DNA of 64,000 nucleotides from a virus (IMGVR_UViG_3300029305_001878:64001-128000); one strand, 5' to 3'; positions 392 to 45,967 are shown, counted from the stretch's first letter. Program-made: numbers and translations. Notes: generated from the sequence alone by a model not told the origin.

Positions 392-706
392 TTAACAACC
401 TTTTATATCACAAAAAGTTTGATTAGTAATATCAATAATTTCTTGACCGTAAGTTGCAATTAAATCTGCTACTATTTCTTCGAAATATATATCCATAAGA
501 ATACCATAACTAAACATTGCCGCGTGTACTAATTCGTGACATAAAACTTTTTTAAACATTTCTCTATCTAATGATTCATAAATATAAATAGTTTTATCAA
601 TATCATCACAACATCCAATAGTAACAGAACCATCACTTCGAATTAACGTTGGATGATTGGTAGAAACCAGGATAATTTGCCAATATTCACCATTAATAAC
701 AAACAT
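392..706 (-). CDS. small HExxH metallopeptidase-like protein (ImmA/SprT-like fold?)
   Basis: Intact 104-aa ORF with motif LCHELVHAAM (HExxH). TAA stop at 392-394. Confidence 0.5.
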   Translation of the reverse strand: MFVINGEYWQIILVSTNHPTLIRSDGSVTIGCCDDIDKTIYIYESLDREMFKKVLCHELVHAAMFSYGILMDIYFEEIVADLIATYGQEIIDITNQTFCDIKGC

Positions 707-1254
707 TATTTAACCTAACCGATTTTAGATGCTAAAGCCGAAACTCGTTTTTCAAGATATTGTCTTTCTTCTGGTGAAGCATCTTCAATCATTTCTACCA
801 TATCCTGTGTTAATTCTTGCATATATTTTTCTAATTCTTTAATTTGAGATGCTTTATCTCGATGCATCTCTTTTGATTCCATATAAGTTTTTCTTGTCTA
901 ATGACTGCGGCCTTCGCGTGGGTCACGCATCATCATATCATATTCAGTATAAGAACGATTACTGCCGCCATTTGAAGAACTACTACGACCACTTTGTCCA
1001 GAAGAAGAAGAGGATGAAGAGGAAGGAGTATAATACATTCTACCCTTTTCTCTGTCCATATCTCTTTCATTATACATTGGTTGAGTATAGTAATGATACT
1101 CCTTTTCTTTCTCTTTTCCTTTTTCTTTCATCGCTTCAGTAATAGTGCAATAATACATTGCTTCTTCTAAATCTTTCAACATATCAATTGCTTCTCCAAG
1201 TTCTTTAGCATCAACATCTTTTAAATTACCCATTTGACTTTGAACGCAAGCCAT
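706..1254 (-). CDS. hypothetical Ser-rich/coiled-coil protein with in-frame TAG codons
   Basis: Frame-1 ORF 898..1254 ends at TAG (898-900). The same frame stays open for ~60 more codons (…TRKTYMESKEMHRDKASQIKELEKYMQEL…) through a second TAG (715-717) to TAA at 706-708. The true 5' end may lie further upstream. Confidence 0.35.
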
Positions 1255-1307
1255 TAAGGACTATTTCATCATTTCATATTGACTCATACACATATTAATC
1301 CTCCTTT

Positions 1308-1730
1308 TTATGCCACACGTTCAACAATCAAATTGGCATTCTGAACATTGATTGGTTGAGTACTTACATTTCTTACACTAACGCTCATACAGCAATTGCG
1401 CGGAACATCAATAAATATAGCGCTAAATACATTAAAAAATTCTTCAACGGCTGCAGGAGTAACTATCATAGTAGTTGTTCCAATTGCCTCTCCTTCAATA
1501 GCAATTGCTAAAGAGATTGCTTCAACGGTACCACCAGTAGGAATTGAAATATTGCCGCCGAAACTCACTTTAAAGCGAGCCCGACTTTGGCAATTAGTAA
1601 TTCCTCTTAAAGTAATAAGACCACTACCATCACGATGGACTATGGAGCAATTCCCGCAAGTTACAGTATCAGTAAATTGAACATTCTGATTCACAGGGAC
1701 AACCTGTAATACATTAGCAGTTATTTCCAT
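1308..1730 (-). CDS. hypothetical beta-rich protein (GC-rich, TAG-free)
   Basis: Intact 140-aa ORF, TAA stop, RBS GGAGG upstream. Confidence 0.5.
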   Translation of the reverse strand: MEITANVLQVVPVNQNVQFTDTVTCGNCSIVHRDGSGLITLRGITNCQSRARFKVSFGGNISIPTGGTVEAISLAIAIEGEAIGTTTMIVTPAAVEEFFNVFSAIFIDVPRNCCMSVSVRNVSTQPINVQNANLIVERVA

Positions 1731-1764
1731 TTATTTTCCCTCCAATATAGTGTTTTATTACTTA

Positions 1765-2541
1765 TTAACCAAAATAGTTACTTCCTTCGCAGCATCCGCT
1801 ACTTCTAAAACCATAACCATAAGGACTATAGCAGCAGTTAGGATTTGGTACAAAGTACGCAGGAATTGGGCAAGGATCACTTAATTTACTTACCAAATAG
1901 GCGTTCTGGGCTTGCTGGGAAGCAGCAAATTTTAGTGACTGATTCTCGGCCTGTAAAGCAGAAATTCTATCTTGTGTTAAGAAATCTAAAATAGAACGAA
2001 CACCTGCATTCTGATTATCAATAATATCACGAGTAGAATCGCTAATAACGTGGCGAGTATCACAAGACTGAGTTGCTAAATTATAATTGGTATCAGAGAA
2101 GCCACGTTCAATGGCTCTTTGAGTTCCACAGCAACAGTCGCTTATTTGATGAGATAAACTATTCATTGCCTGCGCTTCTTGGTAGCCTAAAGTACAAATA
2201 GCATTATCAATTCCGTGGAAACCACTCATTAAAGCATTATTTAATGCATAAGTACTATCTGCTAAACCATAAGTCTGCTGGTCTAATTTAGAAATTAAAG
2301 TCTGCTGGTCAACAGCAGCACGCACATCTTCTTGAGTGGCAGGGAGTCCATAACGCATTCCACCACCACCACCAAAACCACTACCGCCGAAGCCCCATCC
2401 GCCGGCAAATAAGAATAATAAAATTATCCACCAACCATTGTCGCCAAATAATCCATCACCATTTCTACTGGAGCCACTGGTGACAGCGGCAATGTCGGCT
2501 AAACTATACATACTATTTCCAAACATTTTCATTTCCTCCAA
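1765..2541 (-). CDS. hypothetical Gly/Cys-rich protein with N-terminal membrane anchor
   Basis: Intact 258-aa ORF with hydrophobic segment WWIILLFLFAGGWGFGG, poly-Gly tract and several CC/CCC motifs. TAA stop. GC-rich. Confidence 0.5.
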   Translation of the reverse strand: MEEMKMFGNSMYSLADIAAVTSGSSRNGDGLFGDNGWWIILLFLFAGGWGFGGSGFGGGGGMRYGLPATQEDVRAAVDQQTLISKLDQQTYGLADSTYALNNALMSGFHGIDNAICTLGYQEAQAMNSLSHQISDCCCGTQRAIERGFSDTNYNLATQSCDTRHVISDSTRDIIDNQNAGVRSILDFLTQDRISALQAENQSLKFAASQQAQNAYLVSKLSDPCPIPAYFVPNPNCCYSPYGYGFRSSGCCEGSNYFG

Positions 2542-2553
2542 TTAATTTAAAAA

Positions 2554-3467: not shown

Positions 3468-4172
3468 ATGTTATCGATTGCTATTTACAGTGACAATTTA
3501 AATGACGCACGACTTCTTCAATCAAAAATTTAGGATTTTCTTGTAGAGAATAAAATTTTAGCAAAAACTAAAGTATTTGATACAATGGAAAAATTTATTA
3601 CAGTACCTGATACTTTCGATATTTATTTTATGGATATGGACTCAAAAGATGATGTATTAAGCATTGGAAGCCAAATGATAGATATTGACCAACAAAGTTA
3701 TTTTGTATATTGGAGCAGTGATAAAGCATCTGCATATGATGTAACAAAAATTCGTGCAAATTACTTCTTATTAAAACCCATAGAACCTGGAGACTTGGAA
3801 GGTATTATGAATAGTATCAAGAAAAGAATTAAAAAAGATACTGTTATAATAAAAACTCCAGAAGGAGATAGAAGAGTATACACCAATGATTTAAATTATG
3901 TTAATATTGTAAAAAGGTGTACGTGTTATCATTTAGTAGACGGTGCAGTATTTGATGGATAGACACTGCGCGGCGCATTTGAAAAAGAAATATATCCATT
4001 ACAAGAACATCCTAAATTAGCATTTATTCCACCAAGTTTATTAGTTAATATGACAAATATTAAAATATTAAACAAAGAAAGTGCAACTTTTGACAATGAT
4101 GATGTTATATATTTGCCAAAGAAAGCATATGATATCATAAAAAACAAATGGTTTTTATATAACCAAATATAA
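3468..4172 (+). CDS. LytTR-family (AgrA/ComE-like) response-regulator-type transcription factor, with 2 in-frame TAG codons
   Basis: ATG 3468 with a strong SD. The N-terminal region is REC-like (…YFLLKP…). TAG at 3531-3533 and 3960-3962. The C-terminal continuation TLRGAFEKEIYPLQEHPKLAFIPPSLLVNMTNIKILNKE… is a LytTR DNA-binding domain. TAA at 4170-4172. Confidence 0.6.
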
Positions 4173-4620: not shown

Positions 4621-7600
4621 TTAATAATAACTTTCAGTATCCCATACAGGGATTATTTTATTTAAATAACTTGCAGTATAAGTAATTTCTTTAGCATATA
4701 TATCATCTTCAACAATAGAGTCACTTAATACGGCTTCACCAGTTAATAACATTAATGACCAATTGTTATTAACATATTGACCCCACCAGGTTTCTTCAGC
4801 AACTAGTTTAGTAGCATCTTCCTTATCGATGTGATATATATTCATAGTATATACTTCACCATTTTGGCTATTAGGTACTCCATTCGCAATATCATATTGA
4901 GAAATAATATCATTTAATTCATCTATCTTACTAATATAATAAACAGACGAATTATTTTCATCTTTCTCTAATGAGCCTACTTCAACATTGTCTTTACGAA
5001 TAAATTGTAAAGTCTTTACACTTTGAGGGGTGCCAACAGGACCTAAAATAGAACCTTGCTTTATCCATTTTCCATTTATATACATAAATACCCAGCCACG
5101 GCAAGGGTCATCTACTCGAGTTACAGTATGAATATAAATATCATTTTCACTTAAATCTCTATCTTCTAAAATATTAGGCTAATAAGAGTTTGTGTCTGCG
5201 TTCCAAGATAAATCTTTATCTTTAAGGTCTGAAGCAGTAAAAATATGAATTGCTTTTGGTAAATAGAAACTAAATAATTGAACATCTTGATTTCTAATTG
5301 ATTCCTCTATTTGAATCTCTTCTCTATTATTTATTTCTATTTTTTCACTTCTAAAGTAAGGAATATTTGGAATATGAAAAATAAATTTTTCTCGATATCC
5401 ATTATCTTTTTCTCCTATTAATAAATTAGTTGATAATTCAACTTTTGAACGTGTATATTTCTAAATATTATCTACTGAATCTTTATAAAGTTCAAAAGCA
5501 GATTTTTCTTGAATTTCAACTTCTGGAGAAGGTGCTGTTATAATTCCTATATATCTTACACTTAATAAATTTTCTTTTTTACTCTTAAATTGATATAATC
5601 TACCTGAAGGCTTATTAATATACATATCTCCAGGTAATACGTCCTATTCTAATAAAGCAAAATGATATCTTAAATTAGATAATAAATAAGTATATTTTTG
5701 AATATATTTTATTATATCATAAGAATAAATAAGATATTCTCTTTCAACACTTTCTTCTAATAAATTATCTTCATTATGCAATTTAATATAAATCCATCTT
5801 AAATCAATAACTGAATCATAAGAATTATATAAATTTAATAAAGTAGATAAATTTGAATTCCACATATAACCTTTATAATACTAATAACAATATTCATACT
5901 ATTTATCAGTATTTAAAGTATTAAAATATTCTTTACTATAAAAATTATTTTTATTCCAACAATCATTTAAGAGATTTAAATCATTAATTGTATTAGGTCT
6001 ATAATTAGAGATAAAATTTTCTAATGGTTCTTTCATTTGATATAATTCTGAATAAATTGCATCACAATAGTCTTCTAATTTATCTTTATATTCATATTTT
6101 AAAGTATTTTTATTAAAACCATATAAGCCCCAAGGAATTTTATTTTCTAAATCATCTACTTCAGAAGTATTACTTAAAATATTAAGCAAACTTTTATCTT
6201 TGTAATAATAATTTTTGATAGAAGGATAATTATCAATATTATTATTTATATAATCAGTAAATAATCTTACACTAAATATTTTATCAGTATCATCTACTGT
6301 CATAATTTCAACAGAACCATTACCACCATCAAAATATAAAATAGTTCCTTTAACTTCGTTAATAGGACATAATTTTGCATATACTCTAATAAAATTATCT
6401 AATATTTCGACTCTAAAGAAATCTTCTTCATAAGGATTGCTCATTGTAAGAATTGCAGAGTGAGAAGTTGTTATTCCTTCTACTGGAATGTCAACATAGA
6501 ACTAATAACTTTCAGTAGCATAATTAGGATTAACTTCCCAATTTCCAAGAGTATCAATACTATATTTTCCCGCTGGTTCTATCCCTTCGCCAATCTATAC
6601 TGCAATCATTCCATCACGAGTATTAACTGTTTCATCTTGATTTAAATCAGCATACATTAATTCGACTTCATCTTCTATGCCAACTAAAGATTCTGTTATA
6701 ATTCTTCCATCTTCAGAATCAATCTTTCCATCACCGTTAACATCACCACGCATACGACCGGCCGGAATGGTAATTTCCTAATTCTCACTATTATTACTTA
6801 TATCCGCCGCGCTTAATGCGCCGCGCAGTAAACTAGTTAAATCAACTATTTTATTAATATCTTCACTACTACAACTATAAATAATATCATCAAAAGACCA
6901 AGGATGTTCTGCAGTATAACTAAATGGAAATTCATTTAAATCGCCTTGCCCAAATAAAGGACCAGAGAAATACTTTACTTCTCTTGGTAACTAAAAATCT
7001 AAAATAGGTTTAGTTAAAGTTGCTTCAACTAATTTACCATCAATTTCTCTAACTTCACCACTTACTAACAAATCAACATCTGGGTCTCTAGTAGGCCCTA
7101 GAACTGTATTATAAATATTTTCAATTCTCTATGCTCTTTGCTAATAAAATTTAATCTGTGGTTTATCAGGGTTAGTTAAATCATAGGTCACATAAGGATC
7201 TCCATCTTCAATATCAATAGTCTAATGGAAAACTTGAATTCTTGGAGTTTGACCTGTAACACAAGCAATTAAACGATAACCAAAGCCAAAATTCTCTTCA
7301 GAATAAATATCAGAAGTTTCTTTTAAACTTTCACCAGGTATCTATCTAAATCTAATAATAGTACCATCAGGATTAATCCAGTTACCATCTTTATCACAAG
7401 GAACATTTTGATTTAAACTTGGAGAATAAATAGAGTATGTTCCATCTCCATTAGGATTTACTTCTCCAACATCTTCAAAATTAATAAAAACATAAACATT
7501 TTCTTCCGAATTGGGAAAGTCAGGAGATACTTCTTTACTATCTTCTACATAAATCTTCTACCAAATAGAGTTAGTATAAGATTTACCACAATTCATTAAG

Positions 7601-7836
7601 TCAATATTTAAATTCTATTCATAAGTAGAAGGCTCAACAATTGTTTCACCATTTTCATTTTTATATATTTTATTTAATTCAGCAATATCGCCATAACTAA
7701 TAAAAACATAATCGCCAACATTAATAGGAGAATACCAACGAGCCTATAAGTCTTTTAATAAATCTTCAGAGCGATTCGAGAAGATTTGAGAAATTCTAAA
7801 ATCTTGACCTTTCTATCCACCATAAAAACTATACAT
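4621..7836 (-). CDS. tail fiber / receptor-binding protein (~1070 aa) carrying a type-I dockerin module; many in-frame TAGs
   Basis: ATG 7834-7836 with a G-rich RBS. Frame-1 ORF fragments 5899..6444, 5644..5865 and 4621..5085 are joined only by TAG (the 6445-6780 and 5086-5176 junctions were checked). TAA at 4621. The 5176-5644 stretch was not fully checked. Confidence 0.4.
6610..6750 (-). other. dockerin type-I module inside tail fiber
   Basis: Translation …GDVNGDGKIDSEDGRIITESLVGIEDEVELMYADLNQDETVNTRDGMIAV… contains two 12-residue Ca-binding loops (D-x-N-x-D-G-x-I-D-x-x-D and D-x-N-x-D-x-x-V-N-x-x-D) about 22 aa apart. Confidence 0.55.
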
Positions 7837-8540
7837 TAGATACTTCCCCCCTCAAATGTTGTAAACATAAAATCTATAATAACATTTTTCAAATCCTGTA
7901 AATAATCATTTTCAACATAAACACCCGCTAAACCTTTTATATATCTTGCTCTTGCGGCATTATACTCTGTTAAATATTTGTTATGGATTACTTCATATTG
8001 TTCCCAAAATTTTTCATTTGTTATTGTAGAATTTGGTGCCTCTTGTTCTAATTTTAACTATCTATAAGCCTTATCAAAATCAGTTTTTGCTTTTTCCATT
8101 TGACGAACTCCATCACTAACATAGTTATTAGTTTGATAAACATCAATAGTATACATTTTAGGACGTGCAAAAACCAATCTTTCCACTTTTATATCATCAT
8201 CCAATTCATAAATACCAGTACGACCAACAATAATCTCTTGCCCAGAATATTTAACAACTTTACCCTCTTCATCAACATCAATCTATCCATCTATATAAAA
8301 TTTTGTTCCAGGAGGGGCTTGAATACCTAATTTATAAATACTCTAACTAAAATTTTTAAATACATTTTCAGTATAAATATTAATTTTTTTTTCTTCATAA
8401 TCTTTAGATAAAGATGAAATTATATAGTTATTATTATTAGGATTTGAGGCTTCATTAGAGGGTTTAATGTCTTTAGTACTGGAAATTAATCCACCGGTTC
8501 CGCCATAATCTTCTAAATTATATATAATTTGGCCTATCAT
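7836..8540 (-). CDS. tail/baseplate protein (234 codons, TAG-containing)
   Basis: ATG 8538-8540 with AGGAGG RBS. Frame 0 is open through TAGs (8343, 8292…) to TAA 7836-7838, overlapping the next ATG. Confidence 0.4.
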
Positions 8541-8556
8541 ATATATATTAACCTCC

Positions 8557-11500
8557 TTATACTCTTACCATTGCTTGATTAGTAGTAATAGACATATTAC
8601 CATTATATCCCAATGGTAATGTATATTGAGTAATAATGTAATCTCCATATATATTACTCTTACTATCACTAACATAAATAATATTATTTGGTTCTAAATA
8701 ATATTTTGGTACACAATTTATATTAACAGAAATATTATAATATAAATTACTATATAACATTTCTCGAATTAAATCAAAAGCCGTAGTTCCAGTAGAACTT
8801 GAAGCAAAGTATTTCATTTGAGAAGGCTTAATAGCACAATACTATTGTCCTAAAATTTGATACTCTTCTATCTACTGTAAAACTTCAGCAGTACCTGTAT
8901 TTTCAATAAAGACAATATCAGGTACTTCTAATTTATACAACATTTTAATATTTTCTTTAGTAATCGCTTTAGTGCGGCGACCTATCTAATTTACTGAATA
9001 AGTATTTATTAACTAAATACTATCAATAAAATCTAACCAAAATGTTAATAAACCTGGGTCCCTATATATCGCAGGATTCCAACCTTCCCAATTATCATCG
9101 ATATAATCTACCCATTCTTTTTTCCATTCTTCATTTAAAGTATCAAAATTCTAACGCCAAAACGCTAACAGTTCTTCATCATAATAGCCCGTTTCACCTG
9201 CACTCGATTGATTCAATAAGGCTTGACGATATAATTCTTCTCGCCACTCTTCGCAAGGATTACCAATTAAATCATAATAAAAATTATTTTCATAATCAAA
9301 ATCATTTTTTAATTCAGGGCTATAAGTAATAACTTCTTGTAAATAGTTCGCGGCCGGCGCACTTGATAAATCAACTTTATAATTATAATAATAATCAGCC
9401 ACTTCTAATAGTAACTAATTTACAAAATCATCTAATCCTGCAACTAAATAATAATCATAAATTAATTTACCATCTTCGACACTAACAATAGAAAACTATG
9501 TTTTTTCTTCCTCTTCTTTTTCTTCTTCTTTTGGTTGTTCATCATCGTACTTATTATCAGTATCCCGGTCTGGATCTATAGTTTCAGTCCAAGGCAATAA
9601 ATTATTATAATCTTCATTATTGGCTAAATCAACTATAACTCCTATATCATTAACTAAAGCAGTAGAATTTTGAGAATAATAAGATGTTAAATTTTTTATC
9701 ATTTTTTCTCTATTTTCTTTAGAGAACAATATTTTTCCTTCTGAATCAGTAACATCTTCAAAATTATAAATAAATTTAATATCAATCTTATCTCCGTTGC
9801 CTTGACGAATATCTTGAGGATTTGCGTCATTCATATATAAACCTGATGAATTATTTATTTTTGTAATTACTGATAAATTATTATATTCATCTACAAAATC
9901 ATTAGATACAAAAATTCTGATATTATGAGTTGTTTTAAAAAGTGAAGAAATACTTTCTAAATCTTCAATACTCATTTTAGAATCTTTTAAAGTATAGACA
10001 CTTATCCATTCTTCTTTTTCATCATAATATCCTAACTCTTTTTCTTTTAATTGTAATAAAATATAATATTTTTCAATTACTTCTTCCTCTTCTTCCTCTG
10101 CTAAAGTTTCTATACTAGAATCAACCTCTTCAGTCCAATCAAGAATATTATCTCCTTCAGAATCAGTATCTTCTTTTGGAGCATTATATATTCCTATTAA
10201 AAAAGATTGCTTTGATATAGTATCTGTATACATATCTAAATACTCGATATATTCAATAGCCTATTCTTTTATTGAAGCCTTATAATATCTAATCTCATTG
10301 CCCCAATAGACTCTTAAATATAGAATAAAAGAACTTTCATATGAAGAATAATTTACATAATTTTTTATTAAATAATCTGTGATATTGTCTATTATCTATT
10401 CTTCTTTTGTATTTGTTGAATCAAAATATAACTCAATAGGTTCTGGTTTAGGCACATTTATATAATCTTTATAAGTTGGCTCAAATAAATAATATAAATG
10501 TTCTTTTTTACCATTTTTATAATTTAATACTTCCCACATATATTGATTAGCCAAATCAATATAAGGTTTTTCATCTATTGCAACGTGATACTTTAAATTT
10601 TTTGTAACACCATTTGCATCTGTGCGACTTCCCCAAACAACAAAATCATTTTTAATATTATCATATCGAGGACTATTGTAATAAGATAAACTATCTTTAG
10701 CATTGTCTAATGTTTTATAATATTTAGTATCAGAAAAGGCTTTAATATAAAAATTATCATTTAATTCCATAACAGGAGTATAATAACTATTTAAATAATT
10801 TTTCTTTTCTTGAAAAACAAAATGCCCATCTAAATCATAAAAATATTCATAATTTCCAATAGTCTAAATGATTTTATCTAAAACTGCGGTGACTGGCTCA
10901 CCTGCAGAAAATACTAACTCTCCTGGATAAGTAAAATCAGTTTCCATATAACCAATATCTTGTCCATAGATAAATTTATGCGCTAAAAAATTTTCATTAT
11001 CTGGTGCTTTTTCACTAATCATAAAACTGCTATAATCATCAGTAAACCAAATAGGATAAGTACCCATATATTTCATACTTTGTTTAGCAACTAATTCTAC
11101 ATCATTAATGATAATATTTTGTTCAATCTCTTTACCATAATGACGTACTAATTCTTTTATAATAGTAAAAATTGGAATTTTTTCAATTTTTATATCGCCA
11201 AATTCATCTTCTATTTGCGCTTCGTGGAAAGTTACTGTAGCGGGTAAGGTGCCGCCGCAAGTACCATCAAGCATACACATTTTATCTTTGCCTTTTATGC
11301 TAATAGTAGCAGAAGTTGCAGTTGTTGAACTTGTTGCCTCTGTAATAACATATACTCCAATAGGAAACCAAATTATATCTCCGTAGTAAGCATATGTCTT
11401 AAAAGGATTTTTTATACCAATTTCAACTTTAATTTTTTTATTAGCAGAAATGATATTATCAATATTACTAATATCATTTTCATTTTCAGGAGCAACTAAA

Positions 11501-15255: not shown

Positions 15256-15329
15256 ATTTTACCTCCTTTATCTCATATTATCTATTTAAATTTAAAAAAT
15301 AACTTTCTATAATGTGCGATATTTGCCCA

Positions 15330-33100: not shown

Positions 33101-33307
33101 GCCATCTATAGCGTCTCTGATTGCGTTAGGCGCATCCAATCCGCTTAACACATAATCTAATCTTTTACGAGGAAATTCAAAGCCTGGAATTGCATCAATT
33201 AATAATTGACGCATATCTTGTAAAGTATCTTGAGGAGTTAATTCTAAATACATATCATCGGTAATTTTACCTAGAAATCTTTCATATATATAAAAGAAAG
33301 ATGTCAT
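30150..33307 (-). other. head-tail connector / neck gene cluster (several TAG-interrupted genes; starts at 33307 and 31444 have RBS)
   Basis: ORF fragments 33017..33307, 32413..32721, 31874..32092, 31184..31444 and 30899..31114. The frame of 33017..33307 continues past TAG 33017 for more than 80 sense codons. Confidence 0.3.
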
Positions 33308-33327
33308 ATGTATAAAGCCTCCTTAAA

Positions 33328-33982: not shown

Positions 33983-35122
33983 TTAGCCTTGAACGTCTCC
34001 GCCATCAACATCATCTTGAGAACCAGTGATGTTACCTGCGTAGTCACGAACATAACCAGTTACACCGTCTAAATGCCAGGTGACCATATCACCCAGTAAT
34101 TCGGTGTCACAGTAGCAGCAAATGTTGTTAGCCAGCATTGCTAAAACGCCAACCTTCTTGTAAACGTGGATTTCACGAGACCAGTCATAGTTGTTATCGC
34201 GTTCAGCAACTAAAGTGCCGCCTTCAAAAGCGATCTTAACAGGCTTGCTGTCAGCGCAGGAAGGAATAATCCAGCAATAACCGGGATCAATAACCTTGCG
34301 GCTATTGGTTCCATCTTCGAAGCCCTGCTCTAAAATAACAACCTTATGGCCCTTATAAGAAGCCAGACGACCAGTTCTCCACAATTCATCCTTCATTGCT
34401 TCAGTATAACGCCAAGCATCTTTGGGAATCATACGGACAGCAAATTCATAAGTACAATAAATAGTAGGAGTACCATAAGCGCCAGCAATCATCAGTAACT
34501 TGTCGAAAGCAGCCTCATCGAAACCATTAGTAGCAACACGGTTTGCAGGAGGTAACTGATTAATAGAAGCCTTCAGAGCAGCAGCAACTTCTTTATAAAT
34601 CAGTTCATCCATACCTTCCATAACAATGCGAGTGACAACAGAGAAGTCAACACGACCATCAAGGAATTCTTCGAAGCCGATTTGAGCGGCGCCGCCAATA
34701 GCACTAGTAGGTACCATAAAGGATTCTTCGCCAGCACTTAACTTAAATACTTCATAAACACCTGCTAAACCAATGCGAGTAACGAACTGCTTTGCACGAT
34801 GGTTGGAGCCGAGTTTTCTGCGGAAGACAGCACGGTCACCCTGTGCGAAAGTCTTAACTTCAGCAAACTGGGCATACTGTTCTTCAACTTTCTTAGGAAG
34901 AACTTCATTTAAAGTTTCTTCAATAATAGAGAAAATCAGGTTCTTATTTTCACGATATAATGCATAAGTACCTGCTAATTCATTAAATTCCTGACGTAAA
35001 GTCTCATTTAAAGCCTCGTAAGACAGAGACTGTCCATCAAAACTGTAAGCAACAGGAGCAGAAGGGTCAGCCTTTGCGACCTGTTTGGCAAGAGCAACTA
35101 AATTATTTCTATCTAAAGCCAT
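33983..35122 (-). CDS. major capsid protein (HK97-fold class, 379 aa), GC-rich, TAG-free
   Basis: Intact ORF with AAGGAGAG RBS and TAA stop. The ~380-aa size and its position after the scaffold gene are typical of HK97-type MCPs. Confidence 0.5.
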   Translation of the reverse strand: MALDRNNLVALAKQVAKADPSAPVAYSFDGQSLSYEALNETLRQEFNELAGTYALYRENKNLIFSIIEETLNEVLPKKVEEQYAQFAEVKTFAQGDRAVFRRKLGSNHRAKQFVTRIGLAGVYEVFKLSAGEESFMVPTSAIGGAAQIGFEEFLDGRVDFSVVTRIVMEGMDELIYKEVAAALKASINQLPPANRVATNGFDEAAFDKLLMIAGAYGTPTIYCTYEFAVRMIPKDAWRYTEAMKDELWRTGRLASYKGHKVVILEQGFEDGTNSRKVIDPGYCWIIPSCADSKPVKIAFEGGTLVAERDNNYDWSREIHVYKKVGVLAMLANNICCYCDTELLGDMVTWHLDGVTGYVRDYAGNITGSQDDVDGGDVQG

Positions 35123-35140: not shown

Positions 35141-35938
35141 TTAAGCGATACGCATTAATTTAACACCGCGCTGATGGTCGGGCATAGTATAAACTTTAAC
35201 AACCTGCCACTGGATAGAGCCATCGCCGGACTTGCTTAAAATACCATCAGCAGCACGAGGACTTAAAACGTCACCGACTACTAATTCTTTTTCCATAACC
35301 ATATTAGTGGTAAATAAATCACCAGGCATAGTCTTTAATACACGAGGAACCATAACAGTGCCTTCGGGCATTCTCTTTTCTCTATAAGGTCCTTCAATAT
35401 GGAAAGGATCTTCATTATAATGTAATTCATAAGGATCGGTAGCAGCAGGAGCAGTAACCTTATCGAAAGGATAAACCTTACCATTTAATTCAATAGAACT
35501 ATTGCCTTCTGCGTCGACGCCATTATAATATCTGGTCTGACGGTCCCAAGCAGTATCTAAATCAGCAGTGGGATTGCCATCCTTATCAACACCATAGCCA
35601 AATGGACTATAGATACGAGCGTTGTAATTGTGCTTTAACATAGCAAATTCGCAATCCATCTGCATTGGGTCACGATATAACTTAATTTCATTAAAGACCA
35701 TCATCCACTCGCCTGCGCCAGTGAAGTTAACAACACCATTAGCATAGTCATACTTAACGAACTGACCTTGCTCTAAAATCTGAATATCTTTATTAGCAGG
35801 TAACTGTGCATAAACCTGACCATTGCGCTGTGCACTTAAATGGTTGGGTTCTACCTGACCGAAACCATAATCAACATATCCGCCAGCGGCTTTAGAAGCC
35901 TGGGAGACGAAATGCTGACCAATGAAATCTTTTAGCAT
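35141..35938 (-). CDS. second abundant head protein (265 aa; decoration or capsid-associated), GC-rich, TAG-free
   Basis: Intact ORF with AGGAGG RBS and TAA stop. Confidence 0.4.
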   Translation of the reverse strand: MLKDFIGQHFVSQASKAAGGYVDYGFGQVEPNHLSAQRNGQVYAQLPANKDIQILEQGQFVKYDYANGVVNFTGAGEWMMVFNEIKLYRDPMQMDCEFAMLKHNYNARIYSPFGYGVDKDGNPTADLDTAWDRQTRYYNGVDAEGNSSIELNGKVYPFDKVTAPAATDPYELHYNEDPFHIEGPYREKRMPEGTVMVPRVLKTMPGDLFTTNMVMEKELVVGDVLSPRAADGILSKSGDGSIQWQVVKVYTMPDHQRGVKLMRIA

Positions 35939-37493: not shown

Positions 37494-39101
37494 TTAACTC
37501 ATTGATTCATTATTCTAAATGGTTTTTTCACTTTTTTCGCCTTCAGCCTTTTGCGGGCGTCCACCTTTGTTATCTCCAGTAGTAGACGCAGATGTAGAAG
37601 TAGAAGTTTTCTTCTACCCTAAAATATCCTCGCCGCTTAAAGTAGAACTCATAAGTGGAGGAATCATAATTTCGCTTAATTTTAAATTATCATTTTCAAA
37701 ATAAGCAGTATTTAAGATGAAACTCTATGAATGTCCAAGCGCAATTTGCGGCAACATTTTTGAATATCCTAATTGAGTTTGTTCTTTATACATTTTTGAT
37801 AAGTCTTTATAATTATATTGTGTAGTTTCAAGCATATAAAATTTAAAGACATATCCGCCTTTTTTAGAAAACTTTTTAGCAATAATATTATCAAAGAAAA
37901 TATGAAACTATAATAATAGATTACGCATTATAGATTCATCATTTAAAATAGATTTTTCAAGAGATAAATTACCATCAGTATTAAATAAGTTCTGTGAAAT
38001 ACCAAAAGCATTAAATAATGCTCTTTCTATTTTCTCTAAATCATCAGTAGTTGTTGAACTATTACTATCGTGCGTATCTATTGAATCAATATCAGCAAAA
38101 GTAGTTAATACATCAACACCCACTGAACGTTTTAACATCTGAACTGCGTTATTATGAATATCTCTTGCTTCATCAACGTCAAAAATCAAATCGCCATTCT
38201 TATCTCTTGGAAGTTTTTGAACTATAATTTTTAATAATCGTTGCATTTGTTTGCGACGGTCTAAATCTTGCGCTGCATCTAAATCTAAAATTGCGGGAAT
38301 AGCATTAATAAACATTGGGACATCACTATTGTTAAAATTAAATTTAATACTTGAACCTATATCTAATAAATACCAACTACCATATTTATCATTCATATTA
38401 TCTCTTGGTAATTTACCTTGTTTATAAAGCATATATCCTTTTTTAAATTCATCAGGAAAAAGATTTAATACTCGCATTCGATAATTAATATCGCTAAAAG
38501 TATCAAAAAAACGCATATCAAATTCAATAGCGGGCAATTGACCTACAAAATATCTTGAACGGCAATATTTAACAGGCAACTACTGTAAAACAATCTAATC
38601 ATTAGAAGGAACAAGATAAGCATAATATGCTCCATTCTTAATTACTTCTAAAGCAATGTCTCCGCATATCTTTTTAATATGGCTTGCATCTAAATATTCA
38701 AGAACTTTATTAAACTCTTTTAATATTTTTTCATCTTTAATTTTATCATCATAGATGGTCGGCGCAACATACCAATCATATCTATATAAAGAAGCAAAAT
38801 AATTACAAACTCTTTCATAAATACCATTTATATTATAATAAAAATTTGAAATATTTCGTAATTCTTCTAAATTGTGTTGTCCAATAGCCATCTAAATAAA
38901 AGCCTTATTAGTATATTGATGCCGAGGAAAAGATTTCTGTAAAGACCCTAAATCCAAAACCGCATCAGTTAAAGTTTTAGTGCCTACTTTTATTTTTCCA
39001 TAATCTAAAAATTCACTTATTTCATCACGTCTATTTAAATTATATTCAGCATAACTATCACTTATATTAAAGCCTTTAGCGTGAATAGATTCTTTATTCA
39101 A
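37494..39101 (-). CDS. portal protein (~535 codons, TAG-containing)
   Basis: TTG start 39099-39101 lies 9 nt after AAGGAGG. Frame 0 runs through ORFs 38892..39101, 38595..38891 and 37908..38579. TAGs at 38892, 38595, 37908, 37725, 37614 and 37515. TAA at 37494. Located directly downstream of terminase. Confidence 0.5.
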
Positions 39102-39113: not shown

Positions 39114-39470
39114 TTAATAACCAGCAAGTTTCATAATATAGTCATATGAAATGAGGTTTTCTTCTGTATATGGAATTTCAATTAAAGTAAAATCGTGAAG
39201 CGCGCAAAATCTTCGCTTTTGATTATCATTGTATTGCTATTGGTACAATCCTTTTTTACCACCAAATTTCTAACTTGCTTCATAATGCTATTTACCTTGA
39301 TATTCAATAATAAAATCAATATTACCATCATCATCAAATACAACAAAATCAAAACGAAGGGGTCTGCCGCCAGGACTATTTAATCCAGGAAAACTATATT
39401 CCATTTTAAAAGGCAATTCAGCATCAGTTAAAATTTCTTCTATTTTTAATTCGGCACGTGAGGCTCTCAC
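39114..39470 (-). CDS. small hypothetical protein between terminase and portal (2 TAG)
   Basis: GTG 39468-39470 after AAAGGAGG. Frame 0 is open to TAA 39114-39116. This real TAA separates it from the co-frame portal gene. Confidence 0.35.
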
Positions 39471-39535
39471 ACGACCCCTCCTTTCTATTAATTAAAAAAT
39501 TGCCAATCTTTTGCGTTAAATCGCTTTTTCTTCTT

Positions 39536-41230
39536 CTTATTGTCTTCTTCTTCTTTAATATAATACAATCCATATTCAAAAGCAGAAAACTTATCTTTCT
39601 TAATGCCTTTATTAGCCTATTTGAGAATAATGTTTACGCCTTCATTTTCTTCACGTAAATTCATCATCTCTTCTTTTAATATGGATGTTAAACTAAAAGG
39701 TTTTAAATATTCTGCCCTTTTTTCTGGAGTCATTTGCTAACCCATTTTTGTACCTAATAATTTTATTTTCGCGGCACGTTCATCAATAAGCATTTTAACC
39801 TTACCGGAAGAAAGTTGAGATTGTACATTCGCGTGCGCTTCTGTATTAATTGGCGCATTTGCTTTTATAATATAAACTGCGTCTTGTTCACAATTATTAG
39901 TTCTATATTTCTTATAATCTCCATCTGGGTCATTATAAATTCCAAAATCAGGATAAGTATCTCCATCATCTGGATTAATCTATGTTTTTACTAGATAATC
40001 TACTAATCCAATACCTAAACCATTACCGTCAATAATTAATCTTTTTGCATTATATTTATAAAATAATTTCTTTAATTCAATACACTGTTCTTCAAAATGT
40101 TCATTTGATATTGTATATATATTAACTAAAGTTTTAATAGATGCGCCTTGCGGCTATGGAGTGACCTTAAAAACGCATACGACAGTATCGCATCCTTTAC
40201 GTCCCACATCGCAAGATAAAATATAAAAACTATTTTTATTAGAACGTCCAGATGCTTCATATTCAGGTTGTTTTAATATTCTATTTCGTTCAAAAACTTC
40301 TGAACTGAAAAAAGCATCTTCTACAGTTCCAGACCATTTAGACTCATATTCTCTATCAAATGAAGCCTCGTTGTAAGTACCCTCATTTTTTTGGTCAGTA
40401 ATAAATGTTTTCTATTGTAATCCAACAGCAACAGGCGTTCGCCAAGTACCACCTAAAACTATACATCGGTCAGGTTGTGTAATCATACGAACTAATAAAC
40501 CAATTAATCTATCATAAGGGTAAGTATTTTTGTATCCAGCAGTAGTAATATAAATTTGACTTTTATTAACGGCCTCTTCCTCGTGCGTTGAACCATCAGC
40601 GGCACGTCTTGGGATAGCCATAACAGGAATAATAACTTCGCGCAATGTAGTATCATCGATACCAACACATTCTTCCATTAAACCCCCGTGTCTACGCTAA
40701 CCACGAGAACTCTCTCTCGCCGCAAGGTTATCAAGTTGAGAACCATTTTTAAATTTATAAACTACTCTATCTTTACCTTCTAAAGTTTTTCCTCGACCCC
40801 AATCAATTTCTCGAGAAAAACTTGGAATTAATCTACATATTTCTTGAACTTTATCGTGAAGAATACTAGCACCTTGTTCTTTACCTCCAGATGTAACAAA
40901 TAAATGTACTCCAGGATATAAAATACATCTAATCATAAGTGCCATAACTGATAGAAAAGATTTAGAGTAAGCGCGAGGGAATACCGCGTACACATACTAA
41001 AAACGCATAACGCAGCGCAAAAAAACTCTTTGATAAAAATAAAATTTAAATTCTCCTGGTTTTTCTTCTGTGCGCGTTCCTCGTACCATAAAATCAACAA
41101 ATAAATCTGGATATTCTCTCCAAAAGGCTGTATATTGTCTAATTACAGGTAAAACGGCTCGGACACGCTCTTCAGACAAACCAACCTTTTTTCGTTGGAC
41201 AGATAAATCTAATAAATTAGATAAAGCCAT
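39536..41230 (-). CDS. terminase large subunit (~564 codons, at least 4 TAG)
   Basis: ATG 41228-41230 with AAGGA RBS. Co-frame (2) ORFs 40997..41230, 40697..40993 and 40412..40678 are separated only by TAG (40997, 40697, 40412 verified). The frame continues with sense sequence (…KTFITDQKNEGTYNEASFDREYESKWSG…) to TAA 39536-39538. The C-terminal region has an RNaseH-like nuclease character. Confidence 0.55.
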
Positions 41231-42438
41231 TAAATTTCATCCTTTATCATAAACATATTTTCATCTTCTTCAATTTGTCCTTCGATAAATTCATTAAAAT
41301 CTTCAAAATCTTTATCAACAAGAGTTCTATCCAAATCTTCATAAGATAATTCAATATCATCTACGATATCAAACTCTTCATTTGCTTTTGCGTCTTCATC
41401 TTCTTTGGCATTTTGTTTTAATGCCATTTCAATCATACTACTTAAATTAGTTTCTTCTTCAATTAAAGTTCTTGTATATCTTTGCATATCTTGAATAGTA
41501 AAATCAACTTTGTCATTTGGCTATTCAATATAGTATCTTTCAATATATCCTTCTTTTTCACACATTTCAATTAATTCTCCAACAGAATCAACAAATTCAC
41601 CCTATTCGGCTTTGTTTTGAGCAGCAGTAAATTTACCAGACTTCATAAGTCCATCATACATTTTAATCATCTTTTGCGCTCCATCAACATCACCAAGGTC
41701 AAGTAGTTGATTTGCTTTAAGCGATGTTTTGCAAATTAATTTTAATGTATCAATATGACCTGCGGTTTGAATATCATATGACCCCATCATTTCTTCATAT
41801 AACTATTCAAGTCGAACCCATTCTTCAGGTCTATAAGTTTTTCCCCATTTTAATCTTAAATAAGTTCTATCTTCATCAGTTAAATCGTCATTAAAATTTG
41901 TTTCATTATCTCTATCAAAATAATCTTCTTCTTCAAAAGTTATATCATTTTGTTCTAAACGAGGAGAGGAAGGAGGTGGAGGCGGCAATAACTCTTCACT
42001 TGGTATAGCATAATCTTGACGGTCAAGCGCAAGCGCAATCTCATTATCATCATAACCTTGCTACATCATAGTGATTTTAAGTTTATTTGCGGCCATTTCT
42101 TTTAGATGTTCATTATCTTTCCATCTATAATCTTTATATTGTTTTAATTTCATCTTGGATAAATATCTACCAAGAATAGTTGTTCCTGTTAGTTTGGTTT
42201 TATCTTTGGCATATTTTACCATCAATTTCTACCATTCTTCTGGAACCCAAGGAATATCAACTTCCTATAAAATCCATAAAAAAGTTTCTGGATTAAAATT
42301 ATCAACGTGTCTTGTTATACATTTCTTACATTCGGGTAATTTACCATTTGGCGGATATTTTTCAGTGTTATATGAAGTGTAAAACTGTTCTTCCGCCATT
42401 GTTCTATTACAAGTTTTACAATAACATTGATTTGACAT
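41230..42438 (-). CDS. terminase small subunit candidate (~400 codons, N-terminal zinc ribbon, acidic C-terminus, 7 TAG)
   Basis: ATG 42436-42438 with AAGGAAAGTAGGG RBS. Frame 1 was translated continuously through TAGs at 42223, 42265, 42061, 41803 and 41602 into ORF 41230..41487. N-terminus MSNQCYCKTCNRT…CKKC. Confidence 0.45.
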
Positions 42439-42440: not shown

Positions 42441-43500
42441 TTATCCCTACTTTCCTTTAGAATTGCGGCAACATTTACAAATACTATATAAATTATCTTT
42501 GCTGGTTTTATTTTTACTAAAATATTTATTATGGGCTAATTTAATTTGCCCACATCTAGAGCATTTCTTAAATTTACCTTTTTCAACATTAGTATAGTAC
42601 CAATACAAATATTCATCTTCTGCGGTCGACGCAATTAATTTAGGAATTTTATTTCGCCATAAACTTGAAATATACTCAAGACTATGTTTAATACCAAATT
42701 CCATTTGTAAAATTTGCTAAATATCAATATTTTGCATACCATCGATTTTACATTCAACAATTCTCATATATAAAGGATAGTCGGCTAATGCTTTATCACA
42801 TATATTTTCAAAATCATAAATGAGATACCAAGTATCTCCTTCAAACTAATCCCAACTATCTTGCTTTAAACGAGAATAATTGCAAAGTATTGCTGAACAA
42901 ATTTCTGGATTTAATAAACTAACTCCTTCTGGAATTGGATATCCGTCTTCATCAAAACGATAAGTAGTATCTTCTAATTTTAATGAGTATTTAGAACGAG
43001 TTAATTTAGTAGGAATAATAGGTTGTCTATAAGAATTTTTTATTAAATATTGGTCTTTGCGCATTTCAATTAATGCTTTTTTTATTGTAAAGGCATCTTT
43101 ACCTTCAGTTACTTTGAGTTTCGCATCCCAAACATCTATGGCTTCGCGCAATTGTTTTAATGGAGGAATTTCTTCTATATCTTTTTTAGTTATTGTTATC
43201 TTTGGTTGAAATATTACATTTTTATTATTAGTTATTAAATTATATATACCATCTTCGCCATTTTCAAGTTGGGAAACAAGACCCTCAAAAGAAGTTTCTC
43301 TTTTATTAACAGTAGTCATTCTATTGTCAGTGAGAATTTTCTTTTCTTTTTTTTCTTGTTTCTCCATACAAAGAATTAAGTAGTCTGCTAAAATCTCCAA
43401 ATATTTTTCATTTGGTTCAGGATTTTCTTCCAAAATCTTTTTGACTAATTCGTTTCTTTCTTCAGGAGTCTATAAAGAATAATCTAATTTAATCAATTTT
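42441..43500 (-). CDS. first gene of the leftward late operon: hypothetical protein with C-terminal Cys4 zinc ribbon (TAG-containing)
   Basis: ORFs 42846..43433 and 42447..42704 are co-frame (0) and joined by TAG. Likely start near 43490-43500, after a GGGAGG RBS. TAA at 42441. Confidence 0.35.
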
Positions 43501-43623: not shown

Positions 43624-44055
43624 ATGTTTTTTTTAATTGCGGTTTTTATACTTTTATTGTTAGGTATAATTTTATATAATATAGATAAAATAGTCTATGA
43701 AGAAATAGAAATAGATGCGGTTTATGGTGAAGTAATATATGGAAATGAGTTTAAAAAGATTGTTATAGATTTAACAAAATTGCCCAAAGACAAAATAGTA
43801 GGAGTCACGTATTTTGTAAAAGAGGACGAGCAATCTATGACAGATAAAATCGCAAACGGCATTTTGAATACTTTAGAAAAAGAATATAACTATAAATTTA
43901 ATGCTGAAGATAGGATAGGGGCTTTAGCAGAAATTAAAAGTTTTAAAAAAGTATCCGCTCCTAAATTATTTTATATGAAAAATGCGGTTTTATTATAGAA
44001 TCGTTTTACAAAAAGATATGTTTTGGAAGGAGAAACTAGAGAATGGACCCAGTAA
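43624..44055 (+). CDS. membrane protein (N-terminal TM), with TAG at 43996 read through to TAA 44053
   Basis: ORF 43624..43998 ends in TAG, and the frame continues for 19 codons. If TAG is a stop here, the gene ends at 43998 instead. Confidence 0.4.
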
Positions 44056-44246
44056 TTGGCCTTTTATGGTGCATTATGGCTCTCTTAATTGGAACGCAAT
44101 ACGCGCAAGTATGTGCTGGATTAAAATGGTATATGGCAATATTTGTATGTGTAATATTTTTTGTATGCGCTCCTGCGTTTATTATTGTACAAATTGCTGA
44201 AGCAATACTCGATGCTATTTTACCGGAAGGATGGGATGAGCAATGA
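44043..44246 (+). CDS. small two-TM membrane protein (67 aa)
   Basis: GAAGGAG RBS and an intact ORF. Hydrophobic segments. TGA stop overlaps the next ATG (ATGA). Confidence 0.45.
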   Translation: MDPVIGLLWCIMALLIGTQYAQVCAGLKWYMAIFVCVIFFVCAPAFIIVQIAEAILDAILPEGWDEQ

Positions 44247-44629
44247 AAAAACCATATGCAATAATTGAAGTAGGTATAGATAGTGGGCGATTGGCTTATT
44301 TTGAAGATGACCACCCTGAAATATGGTATAATTCTGATATCTACTGGTTTAATAAAAGAGATGAAATGAGCGAGGAAGAATATTAGGAATATCATTTTAC
44401 TATTTATGATTTGACTAAATATTATGATGAAGTTTTTGTTTGCAGTTTTCGTTCAGTTTTAAGATTTGTTGAAGGCGAAGAAAATCCGATAGTGGTGGAT
44501 AGTTTATCAAGACGTGGTGTTGCAGTGCGTTATGGTACTGAAGATACAAAGATTATTCTTAATCCTATGAAAGAACCTTATAAGTCACCTTATGAGGATG
44601 ATGATGAAGAAGAAAACAGTTGTTGTTGA
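44243..44629 (+). CDS. hypothetical protein (128 codons) with in-frame TAG at 44384
   Basis: ATG 44243 is in the same frame as ORF 44411..44629, which has only a TTG pseudo-start. They are separated only by TAG. Confidence 0.45.
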
Positions 44630-44894
44630 GGTTGGTGTATGGGCAGATAGATTAACCTATTTTGCCCAAAACCACCATATTTTAGAAACTGCAGATTTTA
44701 GAACGTTTCCCTCATCTTATAGAATGACGAAAGCGCAAGAAGATGAGTATTATGAATTTTGTAAAAAAATAGATGATGAATATGTTGAACAATATATCTG
44801 TAAACCGCAATATATTTATCATATTTGTTTTAAAGAAGGATATGATTGTACCTATTCTTGTGGAGAAATAGTATGGCAAAGAGATGGTGGTTAA
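44598..44894 (+). CDS. hypothetical Cys-containing protein
   Basis: ORF 44592..44894 with TAA stop. Confidence 0.35.
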   Translation: MMMKKKTVVVEVGVWADRLTYFAQNHHILETADFRTFPSSYRMTKAQEDEYYEFCKKIDDEYVEQYICKPQYIYHICFKEGYDCTYSCGEIVWQRDGG

Positions 44895-45558
44895 TTACAG
44901 AAGGATATCAGGATGATTTTAGAGAGGAATGGCGAAAAGCGCATCCTAATGAATAGACTCCTGGATATCGATTATATAAATTGCGCGCAAAACAGTATCG
45001 CCAAGGAGAACATGAATATAATGGGGTTAAAGTTCCTTGTACTTTTCTTGATCCATTAAGTGAAGAAGATTTAAAATTAGAAAAAGAACTCGAAAAAGCG
45101 CAAGCAGATTATAGACTTCAAGAAGAGTTGTATATTGTTGATAGGGTTTATAGTGAAATTGGCTGGGAAGAGTTTTTATTAGATAGAGATAACTGTTATT
45201 ACAGGGATATGATAAAAGTTTTAACTGATTATTATATCCCATGTGGGAGCGCAGACGCACAATGTAGTTTTAATTGTCCAGTATATGGGGTGTGTAAAGG
45301 CAATGTCGAGGAAATGTAGAAACGTAAAGAAACAATTATCGAAAAGTTTGTGGCGGCAGGACTTAAAAATGAAGTATTTGTACCCGAGCAAGGAAGATAA
45401 TTGGGAAGTTTTTCAAAGAGTTGCTAATGGTGGTGGCTATTATTGTCCCAGAGATAGACATAGTATATTTGATATTATATATGATATTGTAGATAAACAT
45501 TTAAATGGATTAGAATGCGAGCATAGTATAGATGGAATAAAGGAGTTATATTTCAAGA

Positions 45559-45870
45559 ATGGCTAAGAAGATTTATAAATATGAACTTGGGGTCGATGGC
45601 GGTATAGTCACTATTAAGAATTGTTTTAGTAGGATTATTAAAGTAATGGCGCAAAATGGTTGGCCCTACATTTGGATGGAGATTGATGAAGAAAACTATG
45701 ATGAAAGTGAAATTAATATCACCGCCATTGGGACTGGATGGGACTACGATGATGATGCCGGCGTCTATGTTGATTCTGTTATTGATAGAAGCGGCTATGT
45801 ATGGCATTACTTTGTGGATAATCCCATGTTTTTAAGTAAACAAGAAAAAAGTAGATGGAATAGTATTTAA
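45559..45870 (+). CDS. hypothetical acidic protein (103 aa)
   Basis: AAGGAG RBS, intact ORF and TAA stop. A strong terminator follows downstream. Confidence 0.5.
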   Translation: MAKKIYKYELGVDGGIVTIKNCFSRIIKVMAQNGWPYIWMEIDEENYDESEINITAIGTGWDYDDDAGVYVDSVIDRSGYVWHYFVDNPMFLSKQEKSRWNSI

Positions 45871-45967
45871 GTTATCAAAAAGCTATGAATAATTTATTTA
45901 CTGGTGGATATGTGGAAAATGGTAGTAGTGGAATCTTAATAAAAGAGCCGAACATAATCCTATAACG

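Follow-up and report, generated by a model that had tools for sequence, protein, structure and literature searches.

Reassignment of the amber codon TAG is established in the crAss-like and Lak phages (genetic code 15), unrelated lineages infecting Bacteroidetes in which decoding of TAG as glutamine (Gln) was demonstrated by proteomics and in which the same early/late logic applies as is proposed below (Peters et al. 2022, PMC9523058). The gut phage clades surveyed by Borges et al., large Firmicutes-infecting ones among them, combine early genes compatible with the standard code, recoded structural genes, suppressor tRNAs and relatives of mixed code; Agate genomes measure 154 ± 27 kb, and most alternatively coded clades were predicted in Firmicutes or Bacteroidetes (bioRxiv 10.1101/2021.08.26.457843). 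TAG-to-Gln reassignment was also reported for phAss-1 and a monophyletic group including Enterococcus phage EF1 as well as Enterocloster phage PMBT10 (Babkin 2023, PMC10607447). The DNA studied here is a stretch of 64,000 nucleotides (nt) of a viral contig (IMGVR_UViG_3300029305_001878:64001-128000, hereafter the window), in the late module of which TAG is a sense codon. Homology places the window, about one third of the genome of a tailed gut or rumen phage of about 185 kb (the source phage), in the SPbeta-like/Enterococcus phage EF1-H1/phAss-1 lineage. The phenomenon (Borges 2021/22, Peters 2022) and the lineage (phAss-1, Babkin 2023) are already known, and what is new is this relative.

Genes were called with TAA and TGA as the sole stop codons, and coverage was measured with open reading frames (ORFs) of at least 100 codons. 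In the AT-rich window (32% GC), ORF coverage of positions 392-43,556 rose from 51.5% under the standard code (code 11) to 97.9% with TAG as sense, and the longest ORF from 384 to 2,886 codons; the control in which TGA was read as sense gave a coverage of 55.0% and a longest ORF of 385 codons. Thirty-one genes, all but one on the minus strand, filled 97.2% of positions 392-43,367, and an AGGAGG-like ribosome-binding site (RBS) was found ahead of almost all of them. Across their 13,896 codons, TAG occurred in frame 191 times and TAA and TGA never; the two alternative frames of this DNA had 567 and 928 TAA, and 158 and 998 TGA. The interruption of the late frames by TAG only is beyond chance, and TAG is reassigned to sense in the late module. 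The genes end in TAA (30) or TGA (one). TAG makes up 30% of the Gln-type codons (TAG 191, CAA 354, CAG 85), and Gln accounts for 4.5% of the late-gene codons counting TAG and 3.2% without it. Because the median position of the first TAG is 13% of the way into the gene, standard-code products would mostly be cut short early. Frame changes at TAG sites, a check set beforehand, were not seen in the homologue alignments.

An earlier note on this DNA had proposed the sense reading of TAG from adjacent co-frame ORF fragments, and the figures above bear it out. The gene of the large terminase subunit (TerL; 39488..41230, minus strand, 580 amino acids, phrog_2), one of its examples, is a single gene interrupted by TAG only, at seven codons. 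The portal gene (37494..39101, minus strand, TTG start) was likewise rightly taken as one TAG-interrupted gene, with a TAG count of seven in place of six; phrog_2739 (E=2e-83) spans residues 75-533 of the protein, across TAGs, and tblastn also matched annotated portals. The PHROG and tblastn matches of TerL and portal alike continue past the TAGs. The tape measure gene (18374..27010, minus strand, 2,878 amino acids) becomes a single ORF once TAG is sense, and since it holds 52 TAGs it is split into far more than the ten fragments reported. A supposed single run of 11 frame-1 fragments at 8557-15255 consists of two co-frame genes, 8557-11691 and 11707-15255, with a real TAA between them; the TAA at 39114 does separate two co-frame genes, as described. 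Among the distal genes of the operon, the ATG at 2797 with TAG at codon 8 is present (2554-2799, minus strand, one TAG; relatives have CAA in eight cases and CAG in eight), and the five TAGs of 2821-3222 (minus strand) were recounted as five. In the opposite-strand gene 3468..4172 (plus strand), homology continues across TAG as claimed, phrog_8810 covering residues 3-227 and with them the two TAGs, at codons 22 and 165, the first of which is CAA and the second TAG in one relative; the label of a LytTR regulator with a REC-like domain was not upheld, a Pfam search giving no match even at E≤5 and the PDB response-regulator match being weak (E=0.19).

When TerL was compared with deposited phages by tblastn, an unannotated human-faecal fragment was closest (60%). 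Identities of 46-47% were obtained for Enterococcus phages H1, VRE9 and EF1 and for Geobacillus virus E3, of 43-44% for Alicyclobacillus phage KKP_3916 and for phAss-1, and of 33-35% for SPbeta-like phages of Bacillus and Brevibacillus. The portal gave the same picture, and megablast against INPHARED returned a single 12-kb fragment at 72% identity. No crAss-like or Lak phage was present among the listed TerL and portal matches, which were Firmicutes phages and unclassified gut sequences instead; the stop-recoding pattern and TAG = Gln are shared with crAss-like and Lak phages, as the earlier note had it, and kinship with them is not.

The likeness to phAss-1 (OQ749652) comprises TAG-to-Gln recoding in TerL, portal, tape measure and tail genes, a siphovirus-type layout, and tRNAs with a CUA anticodon (tRNA(CUA)) of the same two sequence types in relatives of the window; as in the phAss-1 group, which mixes recoded and standard-code members and has a tape measure protein of more than 3,000 amino acids, late genes face a long early/middle operon. 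TerL and portal are 43% and 38% identical, respectively, to those of phAss-1. The differences are that megablast of a 9-kb head/packaging region gave no nucleotide match, that the source genome measures about 185 kb as against 136 kb, and that the phAss-1 tRNA array lies upstream of NAD-salvage genes, where the source phage has no array. Members of the proposed genus Phassvirus (phAss-1, BK046881, BK025033) share 80-86% nucleotide identity (PMC10607447), and membership of the window phage was rejected, there being no nucleotide match to phAss-1 and a TerL identity of only 43%. In agreement with placement in the wider group of Babkin, TerL was 43-46% and portal 28-38% identical to those of phAss-1, EF1 and H1 over more than 85% of their length, and the late module is syntenic. 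Standard-code kin (H1/EF1/VRE9, Geobacillus virus E3, KKP_3916 and SPbeta-like phages; TerL 33-47%) have the order sigma factor, YonG-like gene, TerL, portal, head, giant tape measure and tail, and show Gln, arginine (Arg), lysine (Lys) or glutamate where the window has TAG. The standard-code early genes, recoded structural genes and mixed-code kin of Borges et al. resemble the window's clade, although those authors stress recoding of lysis genes and the holin of the window is without TAG. The window phage may belong to the Agate clade, to which its genome size, its habitat and the mixture of codes among its kin would be suited; the NCBI taxonomy lists a "Caudoviricetes code 15 clade". When a genome collection was scanned for a host, the only finds were related contigs inside metagenome-assembled genomes labelled Mollicutes, Acutalibacteraceae and Muribaculaceae (L156-L159; L numbers are handles of individual loci and contigs), two of them phage-sized (164 and 176 kb) and two shorter, which is probably binning error and not host evidence.

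The residue read at TAG was assessed in three independent comparisons, all of which pointed to Gln. The first was with four standard-code phages and MT836163.1, an unannotated fragment without in-frame TAG at the aligned sites, with X placed at each TAG. After exclusion of the poorly aligned tape measure, Gln stood opposite 23% of the TAGs, compared with 27.6% at true Gln codons and a background of 4.6%, and was preferred over Arg, the next best, by 18.5 log units (26.5 with all sites). The second was with 63 related IMG/VR loci with a TerL 60-87% identical to that of the window. At the TAG sites of the window these relatives showed TAG 552 times, CAA 554 times and CAG 153 times, any other codon occurring at most 114 times, and many sites were purely TAG/CAA/CAG; in the reverse view, the window mostly had CAA, TAG or CAG at the TAG sites of the relatives. 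Fifty-eight relatives are recoded, their TAG frequency being 2-18 per 1,000 codons and TGA never occurring in frame; on this finding and the TGA-sense coverage of 55.0%, reassignment of TGA or TAA was rejected. The other five (L041, L042, L051, L052 and L060; TerL 60-75%) had no in-frame TAG in 1,348-3,619 aligned codons and, judged by these alignments, are standard-code members, standard-code and code-15 phages coexisting in the clade. These five served for the third comparison: opposite window TAGs, 70 of their 129 residues were Gln (54%; 56% at true Gln codons, background 3.8%), and the lead of Gln over any other residue exceeded 160 log units. TerL sites 359, 417, 498 and 538, and sites 61 and 78 of the neighbouring HNH endonuclease, were Gln in all five, and codon 217 of the late sigma factor, TAG in the window, was CAA in 49, CAG in two and TAG in four relatives. 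Glutamine as the reading of TAG in the late genes, only tentative in the earlier note, is strongly supported by these homologue alignments.

A block of 31 genes on the plus strand (46858..63726), regarded as early, contained no TAG in frame or as stop, its genes ending in TGA (16) or TAA (15). The absence of TAG among its 70 Gln codons has P~1e-11 at the late-gene TAG share, and the gain in ORFs with TAG as sense was no greater than in the TGA-sense control. Because TAG occurs neither in frame nor as stop, the block reads alike under codes 11 and 15. The TAG-free early genes fit a change from the standard code to code 15 in the course of infection, and on the model of Borges et al. (bioRxiv 10.1101/2021.08.26.457843) such a pattern is to be expected of an infection that begins under the code of the host.

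The reading that we favour, with a probability of roughly 0.87, is that of a code-15 late operon and TAG-free early genes, with TAG decoded most likely by a phage tRNA(CUA) and the late genes translatable once this tRNA has accumulated. The standard translation system of the host would first read the TAG-free early genes; a phage amber suppressor tRNA(CUA), encoded in an array on the early-gene side, would accumulate; the late sigma factor, terminase, portal and 52-TAG tape measure would then become translatable, with TAG read as Gln and only TAA and TGA terminating in the late module. We infer, by analogy with the relatives, that the source phage has such a tRNA, that it would be charged with Gln, and that recoding would act as a timing gate.

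This analogy draws on the tRNA genes of the relatives. The annotated tRNA-Sup(CTA) genes of phAss-1 have the anticodon arm GGTCTCTAAAACC in common, and contigs matching an IMG/VR scan for GGTCTCTAAAACC plus the T-loop also carry TerL genes of the window's clade. The tRNA arrays of relatives, retrieved via the neighbouring AAA/nSTAND3 gene (array marker), were present in 11 of 11 clade loci, with 9-22 tRNA genes in the stretch retrieved and about 20 where complete. Each array contained exactly one tRNA(CUA), located in all 11 between tRNA-Val(UAC) and tRNA-Tyr(GUA). Ten of these loci were on contigs of 159-197 kb or same-sample fragments, with a TerL 78-79% identical to that of the window. In the three contigs with both positions known, the marker gene lay 53-61 kb from TerL on the early-gene side, and for this reason the array of the source phage is expected at or beyond the right contig end. 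A putative "tRNA-SeC(tca)" called by ARAGORN in L221, L325 and L327 looks false, the L221 copy lying inside a 676-amino-acid ORF and the sequence having no convincing acceptor stem.

Several results weigh against the favoured reading. The flanks of the window were read from the JGI contig Ga0318466_10001127 (185,543 bp; 0 mismatches in 11,638 overlapping bases), in which the window occupies about 94-158 kb, and neither ARAGORN nor Rfam found a tRNA in the window or in the adjoining 8.6 kb on the right and 2 kb on the left (74.6 kb). Genes of release factors or aminoacyl-tRNA synthetases were detected neither in the window (Pfam, PHROG) nor in the JGI annotation of L079. The AAA/nSTAND3 marker of the source contig was not found, the matches belonging to different phages, one of them a small temperate phage from the same samples, and the contigs with the conserved suppressor locus did not include the closest relatives of the window (TerL 82-87%). 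TAG is missing from the holin gene and from the four structural genes of highest GC content, so that not every late function is gated. Further searches were also negative: Rfam showed no RNA family in the window or flanks; an exact search of IMG/VR with the end of the window gave no match; no tRNA(CUA) was present within 10 kb of TerL (60 relatives) or of dUTPase (31 contigs), where only a tRNA-Arg was found (L052); a metagenome scan with the type A tRNA pattern (see below) gave 37 ENA gut contigs, the source contig not among them; and a phosphoribosyl pyrophosphate (PRPP) synthetase fragment right of L079 had no relatives in IMG/VR. The absence of a tRNA from the window had been recorded in the earlier note, which placed the machinery elsewhere; window and flanks are indeed tRNA-free, and tRNA(CUA) genes lie in the arrays of the relatives.

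The tRNA-free 74.6 kb would also be expected if no phage suppressor existed and the host read TAG as Gln or supplied a suppressor, or if a near-cognate tRNA-Gln acted after release factor 1 (RF1) had been disabled. Recoded relatives without a detected tRNA-Sup are known (Babkin et al., PMC10607447), and TAG suppressor tRNAs were detected in only 40% of TAG-recoded genomes, accessory release factor 2 (RF2) or aminoacyl-tRNA synthetase genes being optional and present in a minority of recoded phages (Borges et al., bioRxiv 10.1101/2021.08.26.457843). The avoidance of TAG in the early genes (0 of 70 Gln codons, no TAG stops) would be surprising in a host that decoded TAG as Gln already when infection began, the relatives possess a dedicated tRNA(CUA), and synteny puts the array in the remaining ~111 kb of the source contig or past its end. 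Decoding without a phage suppressor is on these grounds unlikely.

The distribution of TAG among the late genes bears on a second alternative, namely that TAG is a leaky stop setting dosage by partial read-through. Four late genes on the minus strand (1765-2532, 29005-30120, 33983-35122 and 35141-35938), with 12-17 Gln codons each, contain no TAG; their GC content is 0.40-0.43 (0.25-0.34 in neighbours), they use CAG over CAA, and the joint P is ~2e-9. By position, they include putative major capsid and tail-tube genes. The major capsid candidate, 33983..35122 (phrog_4088, GC 0.43, 12 Gln codons with CAG preferred), was assigned by position and synteny only and is 40% identical to the syntenic gene of Enterococcus phage H1; as to a capsid fold, a PDB sequence search gave no match and a single-sequence AlphaFold model had a predicted local distance difference test (pLDDT) value of 39.6. 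The adjacent head-module protein, 35141..35938 (GC 0.41), has no TAG among 14 Gln codons (P=0.006 at the operon-wide TAG share), and the virion structural protein in tail-tube position, 29005..30120 (phrog_2729, GC 0.40), none among 13. Highly expressed proteins seem to avoid the recoded codon. The holin (4215-4604, minus strand, phrog_13712) is also TAG-free, which is not significant with only four Gln codons. That the probably most abundant proteins lack TAG would suit dosage control, as would the two genes that end in TAG with TAA soon after (57212-57670, and 12687-12902 in L079). However, 52 TAGs in an essential tape measure and 25 in one tail gene require near-complete decoding: at 90% decoding per site, full-length tape measure chains would amount by arithmetic to 0.4%. 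Partial read-through is accordingly a poor candidate. In E. coli supE, a point-mutant host tRNA-Gln with a CUA anticodon inserts Gln at UAG with partial suppression; the clade differs in a phage-borne tRNA, often with an extra arm in the relatives, that would support hundreds of essential TAGs.

The tRNA(CUA) genes of the relatives are alleles at one locus with identical flanks (tttat...ggtgctaa; L317-L327): type A, of 90 nt, has an extra arm, type B, of 73 nt, has none, and a third form of 72 nt occurs in one contig. The three alleles, unrelated in appearance and carried by different relatives, look like cassette-style replacement of the suppressor; in phAss-1, types A and B stand side by side. 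The scans recovered 123 distinct tRNA(CUA) sequences, 36 of them of 85-95 nt, and 22 of these 36 were aligned in the extra arm (for examples see L317:15957-16046, plus strand; L221:9078-9167, minus strand; L085:18443-18533, minus strand). The arm is a 4-bp hairpin with a covarying outer pair (CG 12, GC 8, UA 2, unpaired 0). The closing pair is U-A in 20 of 22; 17 sequences have the loop U[CUG]A, three have U[UUG]A and two a near variant. CUG and UUG are the two glutamine anticodons, here with neighbours like U33 and A37. Because the arm was absent from the search pattern, its conservation is not a search artefact. Position 1 of the tRNA(CUA) frequently has no partner or pairs as U-A with position 72, and the sequences examined from the clade, from phAss-1 and from related sources have G as discriminator; a position 1 that is unpaired or pairs as U-A with 72 and a discriminator G are E. 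coli tRNA-Gln identity features.

It is on this tRNA that another residue than Gln at a sense TAG, namely serine (Ser), tyrosine (Tyr) or leucine (Leu), or pyrrolysine, could be argued. By classical rules, Ser, Tyr or Leu would be predicted for a tRNA(CUA) with a long extra arm and discriminator G73. A long arm with G73 is the classical serine identity set (PMC7609411); type A has 90 nt, a variable-arm hairpin and G73 and adjoins tRNA-Tyr(GUA), and a few TAG sites alternate with Ser codons, for example TerL 498 (TAG 28, TCA 19). However, Ser was 71-221 log units below Gln and every other residue at least 18 below, Tyr codons were rare at TAG sites, no pyl genes were seen, and at the TAG sites of relatives with the type A tRNA only, CAA or CAG is what the window mostly shows. 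Contigs with type A only still clearly use TAG as Gln. Decoding as Ser, Tyr, Leu, Lys or pyrrolysine was excluded by the likelihoods from the homologue alignments, and a residue other than Gln is very improbable.

The long tRNA would, if the following idea is right, represent a previously undescribed, class-II-like suppressor, the arm of which mimics a Gln anticodon and so gives Gln identity via glutaminyl-tRNA synthetase (GlnRS) or via glutamyl-tRNA synthetase (GluRS) and GatCAB. We regard this as a tentative proposal of low probability; such a tRNA would, speculatively, also have to escape the Ser identity conferred by a long arm and G73. No description of an anticodon-mimicking extra arm was found in a literature search. 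If the proposal is true and the source phage carries the arm-mimic tRNA, its 191 TAG codons would depend on that tRNA. The extra-arm suppressor of the relatives could merit a tRNA-identity experiment.

Finally, that the TAGs are real stops in a decaying prophage, a pseudogene field or a sequencing or assembly artefact, as the fragmented code-11 genes and JGI calls might suggest, has a negligible probability and is refuted by the comparative data, the frames being interrupted by TAG only, never by TAA or TGA, without frame shifts, the same TAGs and proteins recurring in independent assemblies from many samples, and the TAG sites being kept or exchanged for CAA/CAG across the 58 recoded relatives.

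As regards the extent of recoding, the range of 400-45900 given in the earlier note is firm up to 43,367; three plus-strand ORFs by the divergent region (43624..45400) contain one, one and two TAGs, and homologues were not found among the compared loci. Its assignment of recoding to the late/morphogenesis module stands, and a strict confinement to that module does not: in the left flank of the source contig, RuvC has three TAGs, dUTPase one and a membrane protein one, and a GIY-YIG endonuclease right of the window has three. The TAG-containing left-flank genes are on the plus strand and converge on the end of the late operon. On identical DNA, ENA calls (L073-L076) read through TAG to give proteins of 151, 161 and 190 amino acids, including RuvC and dUTPase, and JGI calls (L075, L088, L091) are fragmented. 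Inside the early block, the minus-strand ORF 58336-58971 (211 codons, seven TAGs, good RBS) is a probable TAG-recoded gene, homologues of which were not found among the compared related loci, and the minus-strand ORF 57212-57670 ends in TAG TAA; JGI made fragment calls within 57212..58971, one with a weak HTH_36 match. A TAG at a gene end is backed by TAA immediately (57212-57670, minus strand) or seven codons on (L079:12687-12902, plus strand), an ending that works under either code. The GC content of the late genes is 25-34%, and that of the early block 38-42% at 46-56 kb and 29-34% beyond 56 kb. A leader, GAAAGGAATTGATACTATG (at 51055-51116, 52559-52620 and 54348-54409), is common to three early genes on the plus strand, and two of the leader-bearing genes (52618-53037 and 54407-54817) are paralogues with 60% identity.

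The late operon occupies the minus strand, beginning at 43.4 kb and ending at 0.4 kb. Its first gene encodes a sigma factor (42441..43367, phrog_5767, E=2e-45, three TAGs), and the gene upstream of the terminase gene a YonG-like protein (41230..42438, phrog_3314, six TAGs), syntenic with the YonG-like genes of Brevibacillus phage Sundance and Enterococcus phage H1. TerL is 46% identical to that of Enterococcus phage H1 over 98% of its length. Two further families match parts of it, phrog_15503 the N-terminal part only and phrog_24618 the C-terminal part only; both are annotated "unknown function" and look like families built from terminases fragmented under code 11. The TerL/portal interval is occupied by an HNH-type homing endonuclease (39114..39470, minus strand, phrog_9084 and phrog_559, three TAGs); an HNH homing endonuclease also divides the TerL match of Enterococcus phages EF1 and EF5 into three pieces. 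The head-tail connector and tail-assembly genes (27132..33897, minus strand), which include the TAG-free 29005-30120, have 0-10 TAGs each, and their TAG sites alternate between TAG, CAA and CAG among the relatives. The tape measure aligned with tape measure or tail proteins of Enterococcus phage H1, Sundance and Alicyclobacillus phage KKP_3916.

From their ORF structure, five tail/baseplate/fibre genes follow on the minus strand, 15368-18325 (12 TAGs), 11707-15255 (25), 8557-11691 (12), 7836-8540 (three) and 4621-7836 (17), the last encoding a distal tail protein of 1,071 amino acids with a dockerin; a phrog_1887 "tail protein" match was obtained within this set (4621..18325). The type I dockerin (Pfam Dockerin_1, E=1.5e-7) comprises residues 364-410 of the 4621-7836 protein (window 6607-6747, minus strand) and hints at binding to cohesins of a cellulosome-bearing Clostridia host. 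The remaining distal genes of the operon, also on the minus strand, are 1765-2532 and 1308-1730 (no TAG), 706-1293 (three TAGs) and, at the distal end, a metallopeptidase-like gene (392-706, no TAG).

Standard gene callers shatter the late genes of this phage, as seen in the fragmented JGI calls, and genes on such contigs have to be called under code 15 before the contigs are annotated, clustered or used for host prediction. With this phage, a large clade from the animal or human gut joins those phages in which the genetic code changes in mid-infection. Its recoded contigs, at least 58, with their close TAG-free kin, constitute a natural data set for the spread of a code change through site-by-site turnover of TAG, CAA and CAG, and the clade also shows which genes resist the change, namely the four highest-GC structural genes, which have no TAG.

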